From a virus (Duplodnaviria > Caudoviricetes): 46,369 bases of DNA. Made by a program: the position numbers and the translations under genes. The notes beneath the pieces were generated by a model, which was given only the letters and a program-made list of their open reading frames with translations, ran no database searches and was not told where the DNA came from. The stretch spans positions 1 to 46,369 of the IMG/VR virus record IMGVR_UViG_3300012921_000005. One strand, written 5' to 3'. This document shows, one piece after another, positions 401 through 43,533 of this stretch (position 1 is the stretch's first letter; every line of letters starts with the position of its first letter).

Positions 401-631
401 ATGGCTCGATTCACGAGCGAGAACGCGTTGGAGCACGGCCGGCGGGGTGGGCACCAGTCGCATCAGCGCCTGGAGGAGCAGTACGCCGATCTCGTACTCA
501 CGAACCCCTCGGCGGCCGGGCGCGTGGCCGAGATCATTCGCCAGGGCTACCGGCTGGTGCTGGCGCTGCGGGTCGTCAAGGTGGTCGACCGCATGAACGA
601 AGGGGGCCGCATGAACGAAGGGGGCCGCTGA
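401..631 (+). CDS. Small protein with KGG-like stress-peptide motif
   Basis: ARFTSENALEHGRRGG resembles the KGG motif (FTSEEAxxAGRKGG). GGAGGG RBS; the stop overlaps the radC start (TGATG). Confidence 0.6.
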   Translation: MARFTSENALEHGRRGGHQSHQRLEEQYADLVLTNPSAAGRVAEIIRQGYRLVLALRVVKVVDRMNEGGRMNEGGR

Positions 632-1296
632 TGCGTATCCGTGAACTCCCCCTCCACGAGCGGCCAGCCAGCCGCATCGCCGACCACGGCCCCGATGTTT
701 TGAGCGACGCCGAGCTGCTCGCCCTGGTCTCCGGCCAGCAGGATCTCGAGGTGTGTGCCCAGTGCCTGCGCGACTACCACGGCTGGATCGGCCTGCTCCG
801 GGCTGACATCCGCGCCGTCTCCGCCAGTATCGGCACCCCGCGCAAGGCCGCGAGCCTCAAGGCAGCACTGGAGATCGGGCGCCGCCTCGCCATCGCCGGC
901 TACGAAGACCGCTTCCAGGTCAAGTCCCCCGCCGACGTCGCCAAGCTGTTCATGGTCGAGATGATGGCGCTCGACCAGGAGGTGTTGTGGGTCGCGGCCC
1001 TTGATACCAAGAATAAGTTGATCAAGGTCGCCAAAGTCTATCACGGCTCGGTGAATACCGCGATGATTCGCGTGGGCGAGGTGTTCAAAGAAGCGTTGCG
1101 GCTGAACGCAACCTCGGTGATCGTCGCCCACAACCATCCTAGCAGCGATCCGGCGCCCAGCCCGGAAGATATTCTTGTTACCAGGCAGCTCGTTGAAGCA
1201 GGAAAACTGCTTGATGTCGAGGTGCTCGATCACCTCATCCTGGCCGGAAACCGATATGTCTCACTTAGGGAGCGAGGGTTAGGCTTTTCCAGCTAG
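631..1296 (+). CDS. radC: RadC/UPF0758 JAB-domain protein
   Basis: ERP...LSDAELLA N-terminus and HNHPSSDPAPSPED...LDHLI JAB motif. Start placed at ATG 631, not 313. Confidence 0.93.
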   Translation: MRIRELPLHERPASRIADHGPDVLSDAELLALVSGQQDLEVCAQCLRDYHGWIGLLRADIRAVSASIGTPRKAASLKAALEIGRRLAIAGYEDRFQVKSPADVAKLFMVEMMALDQEVLWVAALDTKNKLIKVAKVYHGSVNTAMIRVGEVFKEALRLNATSVIVAHNHPSSDPAPSPEDILVTRQLVEAGKLLDVEVLDHLILAGNRYVSLRERGLGFSS

Positions 1297-1446: not shown

Positions 1447-2643
1447 ATGCCCAAGCGACGCGCCCACGGCGAAGGCACCCTGTCCTACGACGAGAAGCGC
1501 AAGCGCTGGTTCTACTACCTGCCCCGCGACGAGACCGGCGCCCGTCAGCGCATCAGCGGCAAGACCCGGGCGGAGGTGCTGGCGAAAGCCGAGGAGCTCA
1601 AGGCCAAGCGCGCCCAGGGCCTCGACCTCGACGCCAAGCAGCCCACCATCGAGCAGTTCAGCGAGGTCTGGCTGCGCGACGTGGTCAAGCGCACCCGCCG
1701 CGCCAGCACCCACGACGGCTACGAGCAGATGTTCCGTCTCTACATCAACCCCAAGCTCGGCAAGATCCGCCTCGACAAGCTCACCGCCGCCCGCGTCCAG
1801 GGCTGGATCAACATGCTCGTCGACGCCGGCCACAGCGCCGCCACGGTGCGCAACGCCTACCTCCGGCTGCGCGGGATGCTCGACGTGGCGGTGCGCTACC
1901 GCCTGGTCAACGCCAACCCGGCCAAGGAGGTCGACTTGCCGCCGCTCACCAATGACCGCCCGCGTGTGCTCAGCCTCGCCGAGGCCCGTGTGCTGCTCCT
2001 CGCCGCCGACGGCAAGCTCGACCTGCGCAAGCCCTACACGACGAAGAATAGGAGGACCAAAAAACAGCCAAAGCTCGGCACACGCTACGCGCTGGTCTAC
2101 CACCTGCTGCTCGCACTCGGGCTGCGCCGCGGCGAGGGCCTCGGGCTGAGCTGGGATGACCTGGACTGGGATGCGGGGACGGTGCAGGTTCGCCGTCAGG
2201 TGCAAGTGGTCAAGACGAAGGTGGTCGTCAGTGAGTACACCAAGACCGACGCCGGGCGGCGCATTTTGCCGCTTGCGCCTGCGCTCCTTGAGCGTCTTCG
2301 CGCCTACCGACAGAATCAGGAAGAGGAGCGAGCGCTGATGGGGCCGGGCTGGAACGAGCGCGGGATGATCTTTGTTACCGAGACCGGTGCGCCGGTGGGG
2401 CCGTCGAACCTGGCCCGCCACTACCGGGTGCTGCTGATGTGCGCCGGGCTTGGCCGCCTGCGCCTTCACGACCTGCGCCACACCTGCGCCACGCTGCTCG
2501 GCGAGCGGACGAGCGACCGGGTGATCGCCGCCATCCTCGGCCACACGCCGGGCACAGTGACGGCACGGTACGCCAAGGTCACGCTGATCCAGACCCGCGA
2601 GGCGCTGGAGGGGCTGTATAGGGAGTTGACTGCGGCGGACTGA
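1447..2643 (+). CDS. int: Tyrosine integrase
   Basis: N-terminal RRxxGEG arm-binding motif and catalytic residues in GLRRGE, LHDLRHT, LGH and TARY. GAGGAG RBS. Confidence 0.96.
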   Translation: MPKRRAHGEGTLSYDEKRKRWFYYLPRDETGARQRISGKTRAEVLAKAEELKAKRAQGLDLDAKQPTIEQFSEVWLRDVVKRTRRASTHDGYEQMFRLYINPKLGKIRLDKLTAARVQGWINMLVDAGHSAATVRNAYLRLRGMLDVAVRYRLVNANPAKEVDLPPLTNDRPRVLSLAEARVLLLAADGKLDLRKPYTTKNRRTKKQPKLGTRYALVYHLLLALGLRRGEGLGLSWDDLDWDAGTVQVRRQVQVVKTKVVVSEYTKTDAGRRILPLAPALLERLRAYRQNQEEERALMGPGWNERGMIFVTETGAPVGPSNLARHYRVLLMCAGLGRLRLHDLRHTCATLLGERTSDRVIAAILGHTPGTVTARYAKVTLIQTREALEGLYRELTAAD

Positions 2644-2761: not shown

Positions 2762-2811
2762 GGAGCGGGCGATGGGATTCGAACCCACGACATTCTGCTT
2801 GGAAGGCAGAT
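2762..2811 (-). other. att core: 3' half of tRNA-Gly(TCC), not a complete tRNA
   Basis: Minus strand reads TCTGC-CTTCCAA-GCAGA (anticodon arm), GTGGG-TTCGAAT-CCCAT (T-arm) and CGCCCGCTCC (acceptor 3' strand). The 5' acceptor strand and D-arm are absent. Confidence 0.9.
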
Positions 2812-2934: not shown

Positions 2935-3087
2935 CTACCGGGGCTCGCGTAGACCCGCCAGCACGTCGAGCAGCGCAGCACGGCCCATCCGCCGGCTGAG
3001 GGCGGCGAGGAGGCAGCGGCAGGCCCAGCGATCGCGGCGGAGCTCGGCGGCGTGGAGGGCGGCGATCAGGTCGGTGGTCGTGGACAT
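2935..3087 (-). CDS. Small hypothetical protein (50 aa)
   Basis: AAAGGAG RBS before ATG 3087. Confidence 0.6.
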   Translation of the reverse strand: MSTTTDLIAALHAAELRRDRWACRCLLAALSRRMGRAALLDVLAGLREPR

Positions 3088-3173: not shown

Positions 3174-3239
3174 TTGCACTACGTTGCAACAAAATACTTG
3201 ACTTGTGGCGTGATTTGTCGTATATATAGCTACGTAGCT
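3174..3239 (+). promoter_or_regulatory. Sigma70-type promoter with upstream TTGCA-N6-TGCAA operator and downstream AGCTACGTAGCT palindrome
   Basis: Operator 3174-3189; TTGACT 3198-3203, 17-bp spacer, TATATA 3221-3226; palindrome 3228-3239. Confidence 0.7.
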
Positions 3240-3273
3240 ACGTGTGCATTGTACTTTACGGCAACGAGGAGGG

Positions 3274-3495
3274 ATGATGCTGACACTGTCCATCCCGGAC
3301 GAGCACCGGACGGAGCTGGCGGAGATGGCCCGGCGGCTTGGGCTGGTGCAGCCCAAGCAGCCCGCCACGCCGAACATCTCGCAGCTCGTGCGCCGCCTGG
3401 CCGACCGCTACCGGGACGAGCCCGAGCCCACCATCGCGCTGCTCGCCGCCGCGCTGAGCATCGACGAGATCGGCCCGCCATCCCCGACCTCCTGA
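3274..3495 (+). CDS. Small ribbon-helix-helix-like regulator
   Basis: LTLSIPDEHRTELAEMARR...NISQLVRRLA strand-helix-helix pattern; GAGGAGG RBS. Confidence 0.6.
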   Translation: MMLTLSIPDEHRTELAEMARRLGLVQPKQPATPNISQLVRRLADRYRDEPEPTIALLAAALSIDEIGPPSPTS

Positions 3496-3615
3496 GCACG
3501 TCGCCCCATCCGTCGTGGGTCGCTTGGACCCGCTCCACGACGAACAGGGCGATGCCGGCGCGGCGACGAGGGTTGCCGGCCGGACCGGAAGTGTACCACG
3601 AAAGACGAGGGACCT

Positions 3616-4677
3616 ATGACCCGCCGGCAGCCCCGCGCGGCCGCCCCGCCGCGCATTGTCTCCGCCGTCCGCTACCTGCCCCGCCGCGGGCAAGCGAGTG
3701 CCGCGACCCGCGACCTCGAGCGCTTCGCCCACGGCGAGCGCTCAGCACCACATCTGGAGGACCTGCCCGATGCGCCGCCCCCCGCGCCCTGGGACTGGGA
3801 GGCCTCCGCGCCGCCGGCCGAGCCGGCGCCGATCCGCCGCGCCACCATCCGCCCGACGCGCCAGCAGCTCCAGGTGGCCGGGGGTGCCGTTGGCCTGGCG
3901 CTGATCCTCATCCTCGGCACCATCGCGTTCAGCTCACAGCTTGCCACCGCGCCCGCGCCCGCGCCGGGGCCCTCGGCTGTGATGCAGCCGACCGACGCCC
4001 CCGCGGCCCCGGCCTTCCCGGCCGCCCCCGCGCTGACGGGCTGGTGGTCGCCCGACGGCGAGCTCGTCACGTTCGACACGTGGCCGGCGATGCGGAGCAT
4101 CTGGGCGCGCTGCGGCGACCGCACCGACATCGTGCAGATCGAGCTGGAGGGCGGCGCCTTTGTCTGGTTCCGCACGGCCGACATCGCGGTAGACCCGGCG
4201 ACGGTGGCCGGGCTCGCACGCGACGTGTGCGCGCCGGCGGCCGCCCCCGCCCCCGCGGACCCGGCGGCGGCGGCCCCGGTCGCCCAGCTGGCGGGAGGGC
4301 TTCCCCCGCCCCCTGCCGCCCCCGCCCCGGACTGCGCGGCGATGCGTGAGACCGACACGCTGGCGACCTTCGCGGCCCGCTGCCCGGTCGAGCACGCCGC
4401 CTTTGTGGCGACGGTGGTGGCCGGCACCGGGGAGGCGTGGGACGGCCTGACCCTGCCGACGCCCAACCCGGCCCGGCTCGGCCCCGGGGAGGCGTACCTG
4501 CCGGCTCCGTTCCCGGCCGGCTACGTCGGCCCGGCCGCGGCGCAGCCCGACCCGGCCTGGGACGCGCAGACCGGCCAGCGCGGGTGCTACACCACGCGCG
4601 ATGCGACCGGCGCCGTCACCTGGGCGGGCTGCCCGGACGACGGGTCGCAGGACGCGCGAGTCCTTGCGATCCCGTAA
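3616..4677 (+). CDS. Single-pass membrane protein, Pro/Ala-rich, with possible extracellular SH3b-like domain
   Basis: TM segment VAGGAVGLALILILGTIAF; ARCGDRTDIVQIELEGGAFVWF beta pattern. Confidence 0.65.
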   Translation: MTRRQPRAAAPPRIVSAVRYLPRRGQASAATRDLERFAHGERSAPHLEDLPDAPPPAPWDWEASAPPAEPAPIRRATIRPTRQQLQVAGGAVGLALILILGTIAFSSQLATAPAPAPGPSAVMQPTDAPAAPAFPAAPALTGWWSPDGELVTFDTWPAMRSIWARCGDRTDIVQIELEGGAFVWFRTADIAVDPATVAGLARDVCAPAAAPAPADPAAAAPVAQLAGGLPPPPAAPAPDCAAMRETDTLATFAARCPVEHAAFVATVVAGTGEAWDGLTLPTPNPARLGPGEAYLPAPFPAGYVGPAAAQPDPAWDAQTGQRGCYTTRDATGAVTWAGCPDDGSQDARVLAIP

Positions 4678-4691
4678 GAAGGAGGTCAGCC

Positions 4692-5591
4692 GTGACGAGT
4701 CGCTATCTGGAGATGGTGCGCGGCCAGCGCCGGCGCGGCGGCGGGTTCCAGTTCAGCGCCAAGGGGCTCCTCGCCATCCTCGCCCTTGTCGCCATGGGCG
4801 GCTCAGCCGTCTACTGGTGGGGCGTGCAATCGCAGCTCACCGACAACACGGTGGTTGCGGTGGCGTTCACCGCCATCCTGGTGCTCGCCCCGCCCAGCCT
4901 GACCAGCTTTCTCATCCCCTGGTCGCCGGGTGGGATGCTGCTCCAAAAGATCAACGCCCGGACGTGGGGCTACGCGGTGATCATCGCCGCCGCGCTCTAC
5001 CTGCTGTACTACTCGTTTGAGATCCAGTACTCGTGGTGGGCCTCGCAGCCGACGGTCGCCTCCACCGGCCTGGTCCTCCAGCAGGTGATCATCGGGATCA
5101 TCGGCTTTATTCTCATCCCCGCCCTGCTCTGGACGCCCGTGACCAGCGAGGAGCTGGTCGAGCAGGTGCGGCAGGCCCACCTGGTGCGCCGCTACGAGCT
5201 CCAAACGCAGGCCGACATCGCCATCCTCCGCGCCACCCTGCTGCGCGCACAGGAGAAGGCCTTGATCGGCTTTGCGAACCTGACGGTTCAGGAGAAGGAG
5301 GAGCTCGCCAGCGTCATGCGCGGCCTGGTGCGCGGGATCGACACGACGCTGCGCGACATCGGCGAAAGCGTGAAGACGGTCTCAGGCGCCGCCGTCCCCT
5401 TCGGCTCGCTGGAGGACAACGACGACATCCGCGGCTACCTGGACTACATCCACGAAAGCCTGACGGATAACGCCCTGCTGCCCCGGCGCGGCGGCCACCA
5501 GATCGCCCAGCAGCCATACCCGGATGACACCTACGCCGAGGATGAGGACGTGCGCAGCCGGATCGAGCGCCGGCGGGGAGACACCCGATGA
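4692..5591 (+). CDS. Four-TM membrane protein with helical C-terminal domain
   Basis: GTG start after AAGGAGG; four hydrophobic segments followed by a coiled-coil-like region. Confidence 0.8.
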   Translation: MTSRYLEMVRGQRRRGGGFQFSAKGLLAILALVAMGGSAVYWWGVQSQLTDNTVVAVAFTAILVLAPPSLTSFLIPWSPGGMLLQKINARTWGYAVIIAAALYLLYYSFEIQYSWWASQPTVASTGLVLQQVIIGIIGFILIPALLWTPVTSEELVEQVRQAHLVRRYELQTQADIAILRATLLRAQEKALIGFANLTVQEKEELASVMRGLVRGIDTTLRDIGESVKTVSGAAVPFGSLEDNDDIRGYLDYIHESLTDNALLPRRGGHQIAQQPYPDDTYAEDEDVRSRIERRRGDTR

Positions 5592-5713
5592 TCACGCTAT
5601 ACCTGTCCGGCCCCCAGCTCCTCCTGCTCGCCGCGGGGGCGACGGCCGTCCTGATCGCCCTGGGGGCCGTGTGCCAGTGGGTCGCCGCGCGGCGGCGGGA
5701 CGGTGGCCGATGA
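5588..5713 (+). CDS. 41-aa single-TM peptide (not in ORF track)
   Basis: MITLYLSGPQLLLLAAGATAVLIALGAVCQWVAARRRDGGR; ATGA overlaps at both ends. Confidence 0.7.
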   Translation: MITLYLSGPQLLLLAAGATAVLIALGAVCQWVAARRRDGGR

Positions 5714-5808
5714 TCGCCATCCTGCTCGCCGCCGCCTGGCTGCTTGTCCCGACACTCACCATCATGGCGCTGCTCTGGCTGCTCTTTGGGCCGCGCCGCA
5801 CTGATTAG
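5710..5808 (+). CDS. 32-aa single-TM peptide
   Basis: MIAILLAAAWLLVPTLTIMALLWLLFGPRRTD; translationally coupled to the previous gene. Confidence 0.65.
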   Translation: MIAILLAAAWLLVPTLTIMALLWLLFGPRRTD

Positions 5809-5821
5809 AAGGAACCGGATT

Positions 5822-6799
5822 ATGCCCGCAGGACACGGCCCGAACCTCGGCCACGGCTACGTGAAGTACGTGGTGATCGACCAGCACGGCGCGGAGCTGC
5901 CGCCCGTCGTCTTCCCGGCGCAGATCGCCCGCGCCGGCCGCCAGGTCACGGGGGCCCTCGGCAACGCCCCCATCGTGGACATCGGCGGCGGGCGCTGGTG
6001 GGTGGGCGAGCACGCCGACCTCGACCGGGCACCACTCACCCTGCTGGCCCAGGAGCGCCTGCAGGACCCGGCCTTTATCCCCGCCCTGCTGCGCGGCGCC
6101 CTCGACCGCTTCGGCACGCTCAACGGCAGCGCCACCGGCCCCTGCGTGACCGGCCTCCCCGCAACCTGGGCGGCCGACCTCGGCATGGCCCGCCAGCTCG
6201 GCCAGCGGCTGCGCGAGGCCTGGGGCTACAGCCAGATCAAGGTCATCCCCGAGCCGCTCGGGCTGGTCTACGCGGCCCTGCTCGACAACGACGGGCAGAT
6301 CGTGGGCGACTCGGCACTCGCCAGCGGGCGGGTGGGCGTGGTCGACCTGGGCCACCTGACCATCGACATCGCCGTGCTGCGCGGCGGGGTGCCCGAGAAG
6401 GACAGCCTGGACACCTGGCAGCTCGGCACCAAGGTGCCGCTGGTGACGATCCGGGGCAAGCTCGCCGCCCAGACCGGGCGCGAGCTGACCATCGTCGAGG
6501 CGGATCACGCGGTGCGGGCGCGGGCCATCCGGGTCGCCGGCCAGGTCCAGCCGCTCCAGAAGGGCTGGGACCGGCCGCTCATCGAGCACGGCCCGAAGAT
6601 CGCCGCCAAGCTCGTCGAGGCGTGGGGCAACGGCGCCAGCCTCGACGCCATCCTGGTCGGGGGCGGCGGGGCGGAGAGCGAGCCGCTGGCCGCGGCCATC
6701 CGCCAGCGCTTCCCCCACGCGCAGATCGTGGACGAGCCACAGACCGCTATTGCCCGCGGCTACGCGCGGCTGGCGCGGCGCATGGGTGGCCAGCGGTGA
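5822..6799 (+). CDS. parM: ParM/StbA-family actin-like ATPase
   Basis: Phosphate-1 NLGHGYVK, VTGLP, connect IPEPLG, phosphate-2 VVDLGHLTID, adenosine LVGGGGA and terminal AIARGY motifs. Confidence 0.9.
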   Translation: MPAGHGPNLGHGYVKYVVIDQHGAELPPVVFPAQIARAGRQVTGALGNAPIVDIGGGRWWVGEHADLDRAPLTLLAQERLQDPAFIPALLRGALDRFGTLNGSATGPCVTGLPATWAADLGMARQLGQRLREAWGYSQIKVIPEPLGLVYAALLDNDGQIVGDSALASGRVGVVDLGHLTIDIAVLRGGVPEKDSLDTWQLGTKVPLVTIRGKLAAQTGRELTIVEADHAVRARAIRVAGQVQPLQKGWDRPLIEHGPKIAAKLVEAWGNGASLDAILVGGGGAESEPLAAAIRQRFPHAQIVDEPQTAIARGYARLARRMGGQR

Positions 6800-7173
6800 G
6801 CGGCCGCGCACCACACATCGGGCTGCGGCTGGGCGCGGATCTCCTTGCGCAGATCCGCGCCATCGGCCCCGACTCGGCGGCGGTCAAAGCGCTGCTCATC
6901 CTCGGGCTGCACGCCGCCGGCGCCGACATCACGCCCTACCGGGCGGAAGCCCGGGCCGCGCTGCTCAAAATCCGCCACGCCGGGCTCCACGACGCGCTCG
7001 ATCGGGCGCTGTTCAACCGGGGTTCAACCGGGGTTCAACCGGGGTTCAACCCGTCCCCGGTGGCGCCGCCCCCCGCCCCGCCTGAGCCCCCGCGCACCGC
7101 ATTTCCACGCGCGGAAACGACCCTGGAAGCGCTGCTGTCCGACCCGCTGGCCGGCGTCGGCCTGGATGTATAG
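6796..7173 (+). CDS. ParR-like RHH adaptor
   Basis: GTGA overlap with parM; N-terminal HIGLRLGADLLAQI...AVKALLILGL; flexible linker and short C-terminal tail. Confidence 0.6.
   Translation: MSGRAPHIGLRLGADLLAQIRAIGPDSAAVKALLILGLHAAGADITPYRAEARAALLKIRHAGLHDALDRALFNRGSTGVQPGFNPSPVAPPPAPPEPPRTAFPRAETTLEALLSDPLAGVGLDV
7011..7052 (+). repeat. 11-bp tandem repeat GTTCAACCGGG, about 4 copies
   Basis: Units start at 7011, 7022, 7033 and 7044 (last one partial). Confidence 0.95.
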
Positions 7174-7182
7174 GAGGGCGCG

Positions 7183-7758
7183 GTGGGTGTCACTGTTCGC
7201 GATCTCAACCCCGGCGGGTCTGCCTCCAGGCCACCAAAGGCCCCCCGCCCGCGCAGCGACCTCTCGCTCTGGCTGGGGTTCATCGGCGTGTGGCTGGCGA
7301 TCCTGGCCTTCTGGCCGCCCTTCTGGGCGGTCAACGGCGGCTTCTCGGTGCAGGGCCTGGAGATCGTCGCCAAGCGCTTCAACGAGGCCGGCGCGCTGGC
7401 CTGGGAGTGGATCAGCCTGCTCACGTTTCGCATCCCGATCCGCGACCTGCCCGGCCTCAACGAGACGCAGCCGCTGCTGCCCTGGGTGGGCGTGGTGTCG
7501 GCGTCCATCTTGCAGATCGTGATTGTGGTGCGGAAGCTGCTGGGCAAGCCCATCCCGACCGTTCTGTGGGTTGCGGGTTCGGGTTTGAGCCTGTATGATG
7601 CGGTCACTACGTTTTTTGGCCTCGGCACGGTGGGCTGGGTCCGCACCGCCGGCACGGCCGTCCAGGGCCTCCTCACCCTCATCCTGACATTCACCGGCGA
7701 GCTCGGGGTGGGCGTCCTGGTCAAGCACACCATCGCCTCGCTGCGACGGAGGGAGTAA
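7183..7758 (+). CDS. Multi-pass membrane protein (~4 TM)
   Basis: AGGAGG RBS; several hydrophobic segments. Confidence 0.8.
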   Translation: MGVTVRDLNPGGSASRPPKAPRPRSDLSLWLGFIGVWLAILAFWPPFWAVNGGFSVQGLEIVAKRFNEAGALAWEWISLLTFRIPIRDLPGLNETQPLLPWVGVVSASILQIVIVVRKLLGKPIPTVLWVAGSGLSLYDAVTTFFGLGTVGWVRTAGTAVQGLLTLILTFTGELGVGVLVKHTIASLRRRE

Positions 7759-7761
7759 CGT

Positions 7762-8394
7762 ATGGAGCAGGTCGACGCGGCGCAGATCCACAGCGCGGTG
7801 ACGTTTGGCTTCTGGCTGGCCGTCGCCCTCTTCCTGTACTTCTTCCTCGGCCACGTCGAGGAGGACGGCGGCCCGACGCGCCTGAGCCGCTGGCTGGCGG
7901 CGTGGCGCGAGCCGCGCGCTGTCAATCGTTCCACGTCGGCCGCCCCCGATTATGACAACCGCGCCGGCCGGGATGCCGCCCCGCGATCCGCGTTTCCGGC
8001 GTCCGCGCCTACGGAAACGGAAAAACGCGCGGAAGCGGAAACGGCGGAAACCGACCCCGACCGGGTTGTCATGCCCCGCGAAACCTTTGACAGGCTGCTG
8101 GCCCAGGCCCGGGCACAAGGCTACCTCGACGGCGGCGCGGACGTGTTCGGCGGCCTGCTCGGCGGGGGCTACCTGGCCCAGGTTGAGGCCGACAAGCAGA
8201 TCACGGAGGCCAAGACCTTCGTGTTCGTGGACGCCGACGGCAAGCCGGCGAGCGGGCGGACCATGACCGCGGTGATCAACCCGCGCATCCGTGCGGCCGA
8301 GGCCCGGGCGCGGGCCCGCCGCCCCGAGGTGCCCGAGGAGCTGCGCGTCGTCGGCATCAACGCCCACGGCGAGCGGCAGGAGGTGCCGCTGTGA
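7762..8394 (+). CDS. N-terminally anchored membrane protein
   Basis: TM segment VTFGFWLAVALFLYFFLG followed by a soluble domain. Confidence 0.75.
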   Translation: MEQVDAAQIHSAVTFGFWLAVALFLYFFLGHVEEDGGPTRLSRWLAAWREPRAVNRSTSAAPDYDNRAGRDAAPRSAFPASAPTETEKRAEAETAETDPDRVVMPRETFDRLLAQARAQGYLDGGADVFGGLLGGGYLAQVEADKQITEAKTFVFVDADGKPASGRTMTAVINPRIRAAEARARARRPEVPEELRVVGINAHGERQEVPL

Positions 8395-8720
8395 GTGACA
8401 ATGTGTCTGTTCCGACAACAACCGATCTGTATCACCGGTTAGACAGCGTGATCAGCGCGCTGGGCAACTCCGTCCTGCTTCGCTGGCGCGTCGGCATGCA
8501 GATGTGGCCGCACCTTCGCTATATGGACCCGTCGAGCGCGTCCTTCCAGTCGGACACGCTCCTCGGCTTTCCCGTGGTGATGGACTACCGCGACCCACGG
8601 CGCCTTGCGGTGGAAGTGCTGGTCAACGGCGAGTGGTACGACGCGGAGCACCGCGAAGAAACGCCCGGCCACTGGACACTGCCTGTCTTCACCTTGCACA
8701 AACTCGGCCCGCTCGCGTAA
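8391..8720 (+). CDS. Hypothetical protein
   Basis: GTGA overlap, GGAGG RBS. Confidence 0.65.
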   Translation: MSDNVSVPTTTDLYHRLDSVISALGNSVLLRWRVGMQMWPHLRYMDPSSASFQSDTLLGFPVVMDYRDPRRLAVEVLVNGEWYDAEHREETPGHWTLPVFTLHKLGPLA

Positions 8721-23253: not shown

Positions 23254-24909
23254 TCAGGCTCCTTCGTTGAGGAAGATGAGATAGTCGAGGTTGGACTTGA
23301 GCATGGCGAGGCTGGGAACCGACGGTGCGTGCGTGCCCGTGTCCGGGCGGCGCGGCGCGGCCTTCGCATCCTCCTCCTCCTCGTCGGTCATGCCCTTACA
23401 GCTCGTGCAGCCGAGCTGCACGGCGAGCTTGTGGATGGCGTTGAGCGCCCGGACGTCGTCGGCCGAGTGGCGAGCACCCGCCTTCTGGGCGCGGGTTAGC
23501 TGGTGCTCGATCTGGCCGAGCAGGAGATCCAGCGGCATGGTCCAGATCGCCCCGTCGGCTTTGCTGGCCCGGGTGGCGGGGTTGGCGCCCCAGAGCACGT
23601 CGGAGGTTTCCCACAGCCGCTGCTCGTGGATGAGCCGCAGCCGCTGGCCGCCCTGCTCGACGAACTCGAAGCGGATCGGGTCGTACATGTAGGACATCTC
23701 ATAGGGCCCGCCCTTCTGGATGCCCTCAAACACCCATTCCGCCAGGGGGCTGCGCTCGAGATACGTGCGCCGCACCTCGGCCCCGCCCGTCGCCTCGGGG
23801 AAGGCGGCCAGCACCTCCTGGGGCAGCGCGTCGCGGCCGACCTCCTGGAGGCCGTCGATCACGGCGATGGCCGGCTGGCTGGTGTCGTGCTGCCAGAGGT
23901 GATGGATCTTGCCCCGCCGCTCGCGGAAGGTCTTCGCGAACGAGCCCGGCATGCACACGTCGAGGTAACTGTCGACGTTGCCGAAGACGCTGAAGACCCC
24001 CACGACCGTGCGGCCGTCGATGTCCTTGGTGAAGTGGGGCAGGGCCTTGGGGGCGCGGCTGGCCGGGTCGTTCTGCTGGACCAGCGCGCCGGGCTGGCGG
24101 TCCTTCAGCCACAGCGCCGGGGCACTCTTCAGCGCATCGCCCTCGGCGGCGGGGGGCGTCGTGTCGCCCACGGCCAGCGGGTGGCCCTGCGCGTTCAGCG
24201 CGTCGCCGGTCTCGGCGGGGGTGGCGTCAACCGCCGGCTCCGCCACGCCCGCGCCGTCGGCCGGCTCGCCCGCGGCCGCGGCCCCCGCTTGCGCGGCGTC
24301 GACCACGTCCGGCACCGCCTCCCACGGCGCACCCCCGAGGGCGTAGTCGGTGTACGCCGTGCCCCAGCCGAGGGTCACGGTATCGAACCAGACCTCGATC
24401 GGCCAGGGGGCCGGAAGGTCGACGGCCTCGCCGGCGGGGACGTAGGCCAGCGTGATGTGCGGGTCGTGGCCGTGGCGGTCCTCGACGGGGAAGCCCGCGC
24501 CCGCCAGGCCCTCCTGGAGCCGCACGAGCCAGCGGGCCAGGTCGGGGCTGTCGAAGGAGCAGTAGACCGCGTCAACCCCGTCCTCGCCGCTGAACCGGCC
24601 CATGCCGCTGATGGTCCCTGCAACAGGGGGCAGCTCCGCCGCCATGGCCTGCACGACCGCCGCGACGGCCGCGCGCCGGGGCTCGAGATCCGCCGCCTCG
24701 CCCAGGTAGCACAGGGTCAGGTGCAGCTCGTCGGCGGTGTGGACCAGCGCCCCCGCCGGCCAGCGCGCGGCGGGGAGGGCCAGCGTGGCCAGCAGCGGGC
24801 TGCGCAGCATGAGCACGGCCGTGGTGTGCTGCGGGGCCACCACCGTTGTCGTGGTGGTGACGAGGAGCGCCTTCTCGGGTCGCTGGGCGGCGGGGCTAGG
24901 CTTGCGCAT
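23254..24909 (-). CDS. 2H-phosphoesterase (Acb1/LigT-like) fused to HK97-type prohead protease
   Basis: Two HxT motifs (LHLTL, PHITL); protease motifs FGNVDSYLD, LWQHD and LWETSDVLWGANP. Confidence 0.85.
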   Translation of the reverse strand: MRKPSPAAQRPEKALLVTTTTTVVAPQHTTAVLMLRSPLLATLALPAARWPAGALVHTADELHLTLCYLGEAADLEPRRAAVAAVVQAMAAELPPVAGTISGMGRFSGEDGVDAVYCSFDSPDLARWLVRLQEGLAGAGFPVEDRHGHDPHITLAYVPAGEAVDLPAPWPIEVWFDTVTLGWGTAYTDYALGGAPWEAVPDVVDAAQAGAAAAGEPADGAGVAEPAVDATPAETGDALNAQGHPLAVGDTTPPAAEGDALKSAPALWLKDRQPGALVQQNDPASRAPKALPHFTKDIDGRTVVGVFSVFGNVDSYLDVCMPGSFAKTFRERRGKIHHLWQHDTSQPAIAVIDGLQEVGRDALPQEVLAAFPEATGGAEVRRTYLERSPLAEWVFEGIQKGGPYEMSYMYDPIRFEFVEQGGQRLRLIHEQRLWETSDVLWGANPATRASKADGAIWTMPLDLLLGQIEHQLTRAQKAGARHSADDVRALNAIHKLAVQLGCTSCKGMTDEEEEDAKAAPRRPDTGTHAPSVPSLAMLKSNLDYLIFLNEGA

Positions 24910-24940
24910 CGCGTGCTCCAGGCTGGGCGGACATGCAAAT

Positions 24941-25018
24941 AGCCCCGCCACCTCGGAAAGGCGCGGGGCCTGGCGAGGGGACGGGGCCTGATGGAGAGGC
25001 CGTCAGGTTGTCGGGCCG
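24941..25018 (-). promoter_or_regulatory. Structured late leader element, copy 2
   Basis: Repeat of 19444-19526; upstream of the protease-capsid genes. Confidence 0.75.
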
Positions 25019-40460: not shown

Positions 40461-40507
40461 TTGCATTGTATTGCAACAAATGCTATACTGAGTGCAACGA
40501 AACGCAA
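40461..40507 (+). promoter_or_regulatory. Promoter with two TTGCA-N6-TGCAA operators
   Basis: TTGCAT-17 bp-TATACT; operators at 40461-40476 and 40492-40507 (degenerate). Confidence 0.8.
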
Positions 40508-40525: not shown

Positions 40526-40948
40526 ATGACTGACCTGAGCACCGCGACCATCGCCACCGACGCCGAGCTCGCCGCCCTGCTGGGCCCGGGGTGGGTGGGC
40601 GACAGCAGCCCGCAGGCGTGGGCCGGCGACCCGTCCCACATCGCGGTGTATACGGTCCATCCCAGCGACCCGGCCGCCGTCGACGCCCTGCTCGGTGCGG
40701 TGTGGCGCGGGCCGCTGCGCGGCGAGTACGACGACGGCGCGTGGCACGAGCTCATCCCCGGCCACCTGTACGTGGTCGACCTCGACACCACGAAGAGCCA
40801 GCGCGACGACGTGCCGGACGCCTGGGACGCCCACAAGCACTGGCTCGTCGAGGGCACGCCCGTCCGCACGACCGACCGGCGCGGGCCCGGCACGAAGGGC
40901 ACGCGCGCCCACGCGGGGCTGGGCCCGGTGCTGATCGCCTGGAAGTAG
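40526..40948 (+). CDS. Hypothetical protein (140 aa)
   Basis: GGGAG RBS, high-GC3 codon use. Confidence 0.75.
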   Translation: MTDLSTATIATDAELAALLGPGWVGDSSPQAWAGDPSHIAVYTVHPSDPAAVDALLGAVWRGPLRGEYDDGAWHELIPGHLYVVDLDTTKSQRDDVPDAWDAHKHWLVEGTPVRTTDRRGPGTKGTRAHAGLGPVLIAWK

Positions 40949-41927: not shown

Positions 41928-41972
41928 CGGCGCATCGCATCAGAAAGCCAAACCGGCATGAGCCAGAAGCCC

Positions 41973-42298
41973 CAAAGTGTAGAAAGTGTCGCAAAGTGTT
42001 GAAATCAAAAAGCTACACTTTCAAGGGCGTCCCAACGGCCTATTCGGCCAATTTTAACCAAAGTGTAGAAGTGTAGCCCCCCCCTCTCTCTAAAACCAAT
42101 AAATCAGTTTGAGATCACCTTTTTCGCTACGGTAATTTTTGACACCCTAGCCCTTCACAGCAATGCGCTGATCGAGAGAATGGCGATTCGACGTTACACC
42201 AGCTACACCAAGGTTAAAATGGCAGTTTACGGCATTGGGACGGCTCAGAAAGTGTAGAAGCTCAAGTGCTACACCAAGCTACACCAAGCTACACTTTG
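41973..42298. repeat. ~105-bp imperfect inverted repeat built of GTGTAG/CTACAC iterons around an AT-rich spacer (candidate origin)
   Basis: Arms 41973-42077 and 42193-42298 share blocks CTACACTTTC, CGTCCCAA and TTTTAACC in inverted order. Confidence 0.85.
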
Positions 42299-42306
42299 CG
42301 CAGCAC

Positions 42307-42995: not shown

Positions 42996-43053
42996 AGGGA
43001 GAGTATAGCACACCCCTATTGCAACGAAGTGCAATGCGTGCTAGGATGGGGCC
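42996..43053. promoter_or_regulatory. Back-to-back leaderless promoters sharing one operator
   Basis: Plus: TTGCAA-17-TAGGAT-6-ATG. Minus: TGC-TATACT-6-ATG. Operator at 43019-43034. Confidence 0.7.
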
Positions 43054-43533
43054 ATGAGCACGACGGCTACCGCAACGACCGCCCGCCCCCGCGCGGCCAG
43101 CCCCGCCACGCGCGCCCGCCGCCTGCGCGCGCTGGCCGAGGAGCTGGGGGTGAGCCTGCGCACGCTGGAGCAGGACTGCCGGGCCCTGGTGAGCGATGCC
43201 GCCGTGGAACAGCAGTCACAGGCCCAGCGCGAGCGCGCGGCGCGCCAGCAGCGCCTCGGGGCCCTGCTGGCCGCGGCCGGCGACGAACTGCCCGATCTGG
43301 GCGTCCTGGCGGCCGAGCTCGGCGTCAGCACGGCCACCATCTCCCGCGACCTGCGCGCGCTGGGCGTGTCCACGCGCCTGCGGGCCGGGGTGCGGCGCCG
43401 CGCGCGCCACCAGCGGCTGCGCGCGCTGCTCGCCGAGGCCCCGCCGCTCAGCCAGGCCGAGATGGCCCGGCGGCTCGGCGTGGACGGGGCCACCATCGTC
43501 CGCGACCTGCGCGACCTCGGCATCGAGCGCTAA
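43054..43533 (+). CDS. DNA-binding protein with three tandem DeoR/HTH_11-like motifs
   Basis: LAEELGVSLRTLEQD, LAAELGVSTATISRD and MARRLGVDGATIVRD. Confidence 0.85.
   Translation: MSTTATATTARPRAASPATRARRLRALAEELGVSLRTLEQDCRALVSDAAVEQQSQAQRERAARQQRLGALLAAAGDELPDLGVLAAELGVSTATISRDLRALGVSTRLRAGVRRRARHQRLRALLAEAPPLSQAEMARRLGVDGATIVRDLRDLGIER

Follow-up and report, generated by a model that had tools for sequence, protein, structure and literature searches.

A phage operon joining an actin-like ATPase and its ParR-like adaptor to membrane-protein genes, and its modular relatives

The virus record IMGVR_UViG_3300012921_000005 (the window: the whole of this single 46,369-base record, G000) belongs to a temperate phage of the Chloroflexales, with a partial genome, and holds beside its integration site an operon that joins a ParM-like actin ATPase and a ParR-like adaptor to genes for membrane proteins (Table 1). 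Comparisons with relatives indicate that this is a real, conserved and modular system, with the core order actin-like ATPase, ParR-like adaptor, a protein with two to four transmembrane (TM) helices and a membrane-anchored FtsK-type ATPase with a C-terminal helix-turn-helix (HTH). The window copy carries in the last slot a membrane-anchored protein, g9, without the ATPase domain. We favour, at a little under even confidence, a function in the actin-driven delivery of excised phage DNA to septa and its docking there, by a motor-less machine similar to TraB/Spd, with transfer in the motor-bearing relatives. No description of a module of ParM, adaptor and membrane genes was found in the literature, in a search of a library with few subscription papers.

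The actin-like ATPase, its adaptor and their gene neighbourhood

The ATPase matches phrog_691 ('partition protein') at 3e-27 and its best sequence relatives in the PDB are ParM proteins (E 2e-6), in agreement with the identity proposed in an earlier note made from the sequence alone. It scores just under the cut-offs of PF21522 and PF17989, and also below the curated cut-off in NCBIfam; overall, it corresponds to an actin-fold ATPase of the ParM/ALP kind, as in type II ParMRC. The same note pointed to an Asn in place of the phosphate-1 Asp, and we found this residue to be invariant in 32 of 32 aligned relatives, chosen among 120 listed of 235 matches, and present in 39 of 41 parsed loci. The Asn is a trait of the clade, which rules out a lesion special to the phage copy.

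Relatives of the ATPase were sought in genome, viral and metagenome collections and in 201 Chloroflexia genomes. The 88 matches were reduced to 64 without near-copies, and to 58 without the window and five distant proteins; the window's own record (L123) was excluded from all counts. Scanning the viral collection with the single protein as a query retrieved nothing, whereas alignment queries did find relatives.

Gene order was compared in the 36 distinct loci whose sequence reaches 3.5 kb or more beyond the ATPase. An adaptor was present in 30 of them, and a TM-slot gene in 21, a count that is partly circular since the profiles were made from these very loci. A membrane-anchored P-loop ATPase was found in 15, conservatively, as a strict Walker A was demanded, and an ATPase-less gene with an anchor and an HTH in four. 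Seven of the motor-slot ATPases pass the cut-off of PF01580 (FtsK/SpoIIIE; loci L001, L003, L006, L009, L108, L109 and L112). The order is kept across highly divergent sequences and different actin families. The module occurs in phage-like contigs, with relatives of tail genes nearby in six loci, and also in elements with an IstB/DnaC-type loader and no virion gene recognised in their flanks (L001, L004-L006). Among its carriers are cultured bacteria, namely Herpetosiphon aurantiacus (L017) and Oscillochloris (L004 and L111). The association of this ParM clade with membrane genes, put forward in the earlier note, was supported in part: 21 of the 36 loci contain a TM-slot gene and 19 an anchored ATPase or HTH gene, but the set of six membrane genes is not conserved as a unit. 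In particular, the distance between g3 and the ATPase is at most 4.5 kb in only 6 of the 28 loci with full flanks (9 of 58 overall), and g3 often occurs without any actin-like gene, while g4, g5 and the soluble g10 are singletons, with no relatives among 1,605 called proteins.

Three variants of the module were also recorded. In L025 (10001-11320; P0089) ParM is fused to an HNH domain; M23 peptidase genes lie within the module of two phages (L025:12434-13087 and L037:8814-9992); and in G001 (L111:9254-10807) a different, unannotated actin-like protein and its adaptor accompany the same module of g3, TM protein and ATPase.

The gene after the ATPase, g7, would encode the adaptor. Its alignment and structure model show a strand-helix-helix start, a disordered tail and a conserved acidic-hydrophobic C-terminal peptide. 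Of the 48 loci in which 600 nt or more are available beyond the ATPase, 38 have a g7 relative as the next gene. The earlier note had called it a ribbon-helix-helix (RHH) adaptor; position, topology and C-terminal peptide fit this proposal, but neither sequence nor fold searches gave an RHH match above noise.

Within g7 there is an 11-bp tandem array, whose score was reached by none of 1,000 synonymous shuffles. Of 47 distinct g7 genes, 14 have their best repeat at a period of 11 or 22 with a score of at least 10, against none of 535 controls of like length (Fisher p 7e-17; 30 synonymously shuffled sets gave 0-4), and the other 33 g7 genes are below this threshold; the ATPase genes gave one such case in 53, and the g3 genes none in 22. 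The arrays sit in the 3' half of the gene, which codes for the disordered linker, and their units, often palindromic, vary in sequence among elements; they are also present in the motor-less elements L030, L122 and L132. Repeats at the protein level could not produce a period of 11. We consider it an element-specific candidate centromere, similar to parC or clt, that would lie within the adaptor gene.

The parC site of R1 is built of 11-bp iterons, with approximately one ParR dimer bound per iteron (PMC2241845). The operon resembles R1 ParMRC in having an actin-like ATPase followed by a small adaptor and an 11-bp repeat array, and differs in that the array lies within the coding sequence of the adaptor rather than at the promoter, and has only about four copies; moreover, here the phosphate-1 Asn is clade-wide, membrane genes are part of the operon and the carrier is an integrating phage. 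Likewise, AlpAC from the CGP3 prophage (PMC4446434) combines an actin-like protein with an adaptor, is expressed early and guides DNA to the membrane. However, in CGP3 the adaptor precedes the actin gene, with alpS upstream, whereas here the ATPase comes first; the AlpAC arrangement of upstream adaptor and binding site in the promoter is not seen, the candidate site lying in the adaptor gene. Membrane or FtsK genes are not mentioned in the accessible text on AlpAC.

In a possible, although less probable, explanation, ParM, g7 and the array would be a self-contained system of the ParMRC or AlpAC type, segregating the free circle or positioning it for replication. The membrane genes would then be a separate cassette, perhaps a DNA anchor like p16.7 of phi29, sharing the hotspot between att and the tail genes. 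We regard independent partition as the main rival because the two halves also occur apart: ParM-g7 pairing is far steadier than that with any membrane partner, and the membrane genes are also found without ParM. Indeed, AlpAC guides CGP3 DNA to the membrane without membrane parts of its own, and phi29 combines its phage-DNA membrane anchor p16.7 with the actin MreB, there encoded by the host (PMC4446434). Furthermore, 74 of 125 near-full-length g3 relatives reach at least 345 aa, many of them with HTH-like tails by eye, although few have Pfam HTH matches. On the other hand, partition needs no FtsK-type motor, yet in 15 of the 36 loci, from phage as well as non-phage elements, such a motor comes immediately after ParM and g7; the order persists across very divergent sequences and actin families; and an integrase-bearing phage has no need of long-term plasmid partition.

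The motor slot and the host-related gene g3

The slot ahead of the motor gene is occupied in the window by g8, which is a clear relative of the gene preceding the anchor gene in L035, L122 and L168. A weak profile match (hhalign 67%, E 5e-5) connects it with the family that fills this slot in motor-bearing elements; one of 298 shuffles scored as high, and all Atlas matches of g8 are under 0.9. The anchor of g9 is 53% identical over 51 aa to that of the ATPase-less L168 protein, and is related to those of L035 and L122 with an E of 2e-5. In turn, the C-terminal HTH of L168 is 61% identical over 36 aa to that of the L129 ATPase, and a profile of three ATPase-less tails matches those of the ATPase-bearing L112 (1e-14) and L110 (2e-12), which indicates that the motor-less form derives from the motor gene. 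This form recurs in at least six other, unrelated elements (L025, L030, L035, L122, L132 and L168).

VirB4, coupling protein or relaxase families were found neither in the operon (Pfam and PHROG for 10 of 10 proteins, NCBIfam for 8 of 10) nor in the 22 other window proteins scanned, as the earlier note had stated for VirB4. The same three databases gave no match of g2, g3, g8 or g9 to a type IV secretion or superinfection-exclusion family; such a match was among the results that the note had named as speaking against its proposal.

The Streptomyces TraB/Spd system moves double-stranded DNA through the mycelium, and consists of a coupled operon with small membrane genes, the 4-TM SpdB2 and the FtsK-like TraB; SpdB2 homologues also occur on actinophages, where they were suggested to spread phage DNA (PMC4447253). 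The likeness to TraB/Spd of pSVH1 includes the coupled small and 4-TM membrane genes, the filamentous host and the homologues on phages and, in the relatives of the window operon, an FtsK-type ATPase that is anchored in the membrane and ends in a DNA-binding domain. The analogy, already drawn in the earlier note, is strengthened because these relatives carry a TraB-like motor that is absent from the window. In contrast with TraB/Spd, here an actin pair is added and the 4-TM gene is common with the host core genome, and no sequence link to Spd proteins was seen; the window copy, lacking a motor, is not itself a member of TraB/Spd.

The motor is missing, and four related genomes (L104, L106, L113 and L114) retain, as remnants, just g3 and a single TM neighbour. 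Both would also be expected if the module were in decay and had once been a conjugative or spreading cassette with a motor. We deem this the least likely of the explanations, since the ten frames are all open, tightly coupled and codon-adapted, and since motor-less forms recur in unrelated elements, as listed above.

Over aa 1-262, the protein g3 shares 84-91% identity with the 11 core (chromosomal) copies closest to it. Hydropathy gives three to four membrane helices and the AlphaFold model (pLDDT 76) four, followed by a long cytoplasmic hairpin, so its earlier description as a 4-TM protein stands. The family has members in 150 of 167 Chloroflexales genomes, a set with many incomplete assemblies, and is mostly present as one copy. 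There were 62 positives among 201 genomes of the class and 32 among 351 of the phylum, all of them Chloroflexales by handle, as matched by eye; the remaining Chloroflexota genomes scanned gave no match. More widely, it comprises 241 clusters at 50% identity. In the core locus, g3 sits between a lipoprotein-like gene and a gene for 80 aa, and nadD-like and rsmG genes usually come next (e.g. L100:7546-10527, in G003); the lipoprotein-like and 80-aa genes have no Pfam or NCBIfam match. A quick tree was built from 20 core copies and 22 that are mobile or extra, six of the mobile rows being on long branches. In it, the label changes eight times, three of them forced by strong branches, and extra copies cluster with the core copy of their own host lineage (G005, the G123/G153/G185 group and the Oscillochloris group). 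These data fit a host origin of g3, with repeated capture or conversion by mobile elements. The g3 gene adjoins at least three kinds of actin-like genes: the ParM clade (9 of 58), the distant L110 type, counted within those nine, and those of L111 and L112.

The fold of g3 has no significant match in PDB, BFVD or VIA-align (best Z 7.4, generic hairpins), and its shared domain has no family match at cut-off and no match in annotated phages. A 'histidine kinase' label in the Atlas is an automatic name without Pfam support, and PF10935 did not match any of 47 plus 52 g3 relatives. SpdB2-type proteins may be tied to DUF2637. The Foldseek rows of g3 for DUF2637 phage proteins have an E of 0.4 and 1.5 at best, and a DUF2637 scan, run without a positive control, was positive in 0 of 81 genomes.

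Next to g3 there usually lies a gene for a Pro-rich protein with one membrane pass and an SH3-like domain; three of ten aligned members of this family match PF08239, weakly (best E 0.001). Its profile has g2 as the best non-member match, also weak (E 0.11; none of 455 scored shuffles as high), and g2 probably belongs to the family as a remote member. In phages that have no ParM nearby, further multi-TM, coiled-coil proteins are encoded beside g3 (L034:8831-9877, L035:11453-12706 and L036:9091-9879), that of L034 having C-terminal HTH matches.

The closeness of g3 to the core copies fits selection for compatibility with a host protein, and mobile copies group with the core copy of the host lineage in at least three places. 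Both would be expected if the membrane genes remodelled the host septum or division, with DNA not being the cargo. Under this explanation, which we judge unlikely, g3 would co-assemble with the host protein and open, block or poison the junctions between cells, so as to let resources flow, break filaments or shut out other phages; the loss of the motor and of a recognisable DNA-binding tail in the window copy is in its favour. Yet g9 relatives and many g3 relatives end in HTH-like domains, no exclusion family was matched, and an operator-like palindrome shared with early genes (see below) would point to early rather than lysogenic expression, unlike in typical exclusion genes.

Operon layout, control and phage setting

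Ten plus-strand open reading frames (ORFs) make up the operon (positions 3277-8720; GC3 0.80-0.96), and independent gene calling recovers all of them. Four of the nine junctions are 4-nt overlaps, four are gaps of 3-14 nt and one, between g1 and g2, is a 120-nt gap; with eight junctions within 14 nt, the run is mostly coupled, as first described. The six membrane proteins of that description are borne out by hydropathy, which predicts helices in g2 (one), g3, g4 (one), g5 (one), g8 (three) and g9 (one). Its list of nine genes left out a tenth ORF, g10.

Table 1. Features of the operon and its surroundings in the window
Feature	Position	Strand	Basis
Tyrosine integrase (context gene)	1447..2643	+	PF00589 2e-19, phrog_1 3e-65
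attP core, 3' half of tRNA-Gly(TCC)	~2762..2811	-	87% over 68 nt to Oscillochloris trichoides locus
Operator-like palindrome TTGCA-N6-TGCAA, 16 bp	3174..3189	.	ahead of operon; pattern recurs in window
g1, 72 aa, RHH-like by pattern, likely regulator	3277..3495	+	ORF and codon score
g2, single-pass Pro-rich protein, likely bacterial SH3-like (wall-binding) domain at ~aa 137-200	3616..4677	+	weak profile match
g3, 4-TM protein with long cytoplasmic helical hairpin, near-copy of Chloroflexales core gene	4692..5591	+	identity, AlphaFold model
g4, 41-aa single-TM peptide	5588..5713	+	coupled ORF, GC3 0.90
g5, 32-aa single-TM peptide	5710..5808	+	coupled ORF, GC3 0.85
ParM/StbA-type actin-like ATPase, Chloroflexales clade, Asn in phosphate-1	5822..6799	+	phrog_691 and PDB ParM matches
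g7, ParR-like adaptor	6796..7173	+	position after ATPase, alignment, structure model
11-bp tandem array in g7, ~3.7 copies, palindromic core	7011..7051	.	sole lag-11 array of window
g8, 3-4-TM protein, slot ahead of motor gene	7183..7758	+	45-47% identity to L035, L122, L168
g9, membrane-anchored, motor slot, without ATPase domain	7762..8394	+	anchor shared with L168
g10, 109 aa, soluble	8391..8720	+	ORF; no membrane helix

Two other claims did not fare as well. The RHH identity of g1 comes from a sequence pattern; the protein has no family match in Pfam, PHROG or NCBIfam and no relatives among the called proteins. The single promoter proposed was not borne out: a consensus scan gave 0 matches, and all that was seen was a TTGACT-17-TATATA look-alike at 3198.

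The palindrome upstream of the operon occurs without mismatch also at 43019 and 43620, where it precedes early genes (at 43054 and 43654, respectively). In total, there are six sites with up to three mismatches (three of them with three) for 0.22 expected, with a pattern that was picked after seeing the sites; the further copies are at 40461, 40492, 43019, 43589 and 43620. Because the palindrome precedes both the operon and early genes, the operon may be under common control with these, which would be more in keeping with a role following excision or infection than with that of a lysogenic moron. The copy at 40461 precedes an inward-facing plus-strand ORF (40526-40948) inside the lysin region.

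The record is partial: it lacks a terminal repeat, and its final ORF continues past the contig end. Pfam and PHROG matches identify terminase, portal, capsid, tape measure and lysin genes on the minus strand; they also cover the integrase, which, as the earlier note stated, is intact. The attP proposed beside the operon was likewise corroborated, because phage genes flank both sides of the tRNA-Gly 3' half; ARAGORN types the host sequences matching the att core as tRNA-Gly. The operon runs from attP toward the tail genes. Named close relatives of its proteins come from Oscillochloris, Ca. Chloroploca and Chloroflexus, and the host is therefore most likely a filamentous member of the Chloroflexales. 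In G003, a match to the phage continues past the att core, after the O. trichoides tRNA-Gly (L178:1477-1575), which suggests that a related element sits at this site.

Other observations concern the rest of the phage. Pairs of 12-bp tandem repeats flank the integrase (1308-1335 and 2680-2703) and could be arm-type sites, and a RadC/JAB gene (631-1296, plus strand) is coupled to a 76-aa ORF immediately before the integrase. A 50-aa ORF with a strong ribosome site (2935-3087, minus strand) is divergent from the operon and heads toward attP. On the minus strand, at 23254-24951, a prohead protease is fused to a 2H phosphoesterase domain (2'-5' RNA ligase/LigT matches and a weak Acb1 match, 8e-4), possibly a virion-linked anti-defence enzyme. 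Finally, an AT-richer gap at 41970-42300 has direct and inverted repeats of 9-13 bp and might be an origin or a packaging site.

Proposed function and its significance

A ParM spindle drives its cargo to the cell poles. The cells of Chloroflexales are joined by septal channels, whose genes were not known as of 2020 (PMC7332563). We favour septal delivery and docking because of the ParMRC-like core, the TraB/Spd anatomy in relatives, these septal channels and a pole-directed actin spindle. The operon would be turned on together with the early genes, following excision or infection. Dimers of g7 would then bind the 11-bp array and cap ParM filaments, which would drive the phage circles to the poles, that is, to the septa in a filament. 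There, g3 would associate with the host's own copy, g2 would hold the wall, and g8 and g9 would build a dock. In motor-bearing relatives, the FtsK-type ATPase would pump double-stranded DNA into the next cell; the window copy would only dock DNA, or would rely on a motor from elsewhere. The evidence reaches gene content (order, co-occurrence, the array, the host origin of g3, the palindrome and the motors in the g9 slot of relatives), and the later steps are inferred. Chloroflexus phage vO23 is also a Chloroflexales phage with an integrase and an accessory FtsK/SpoIIIE gene; this gene is a passing annotation in the accessible text of PMC8597652, where 'ParM' does not appear and no module is described.

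Several results weigh against delivery and docking at septa. TM-slot, ATPase and HTH genes are all absent in 11 of the 36 ParM loci, two of which carry instead g3 and an SH3-like gene; relatives of g3, g8 and g9 occur without ParM nearby (L034-L036, L168 and L173); and the TM-slot count has the circularity mentioned above. In the window itself, a six-frame search with an FtsK-type profile, whose control set contained its own seed sequences, found nothing significant, the best match being g9 at an E of 0.04; this agrees with the absence of FtsK/TraB stated in the earlier note, on a contig that is partial. An HTH in the g9 tail was unsupported by three profile tests, in one of which 50 of 395 scored shuffles were as high. 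The neighbours of g3 in host genomes offer no functional hint. Lastly, a g3-ParM fusion of 684 aa (L109, P0241), the sole match among 7,991 longer candidates, is rejected as proof of coupling: it keeps the ParM ribosome site, differs from the paralogous L108 by a 1-bp insertion, likely a sequencing error or recent frameshift, and gives no more than this single case.

A bolder extension, to which we grant a rather low probability, is that of spread through filaments without virions. The actin spindle would bring the circle to the septum, and the captured copy of a host septal-channel protein, g3, would let it pass. The host g3 would then be part of the Chloroflexales septal channel, and motor-less phages would use actin force or the host channel instead of a translocase.

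In all, the module unites in mobile elements two DNA-moving machines known only separately, actin partition and FtsK/Spd-type spreading, and it does so in a multicellular lineage with phages that have received very little study. The module offers a named adaptor with a named candidate binding site, as well as matched natural variants with and without the motor. Likewise, g3 is a candidate gene for multicellularity in the Chloroflexales, because it is near-universal in this order, gave no match in the remaining Chloroflexota that were scanned and has apparently been captured repeatedly by their parasites.

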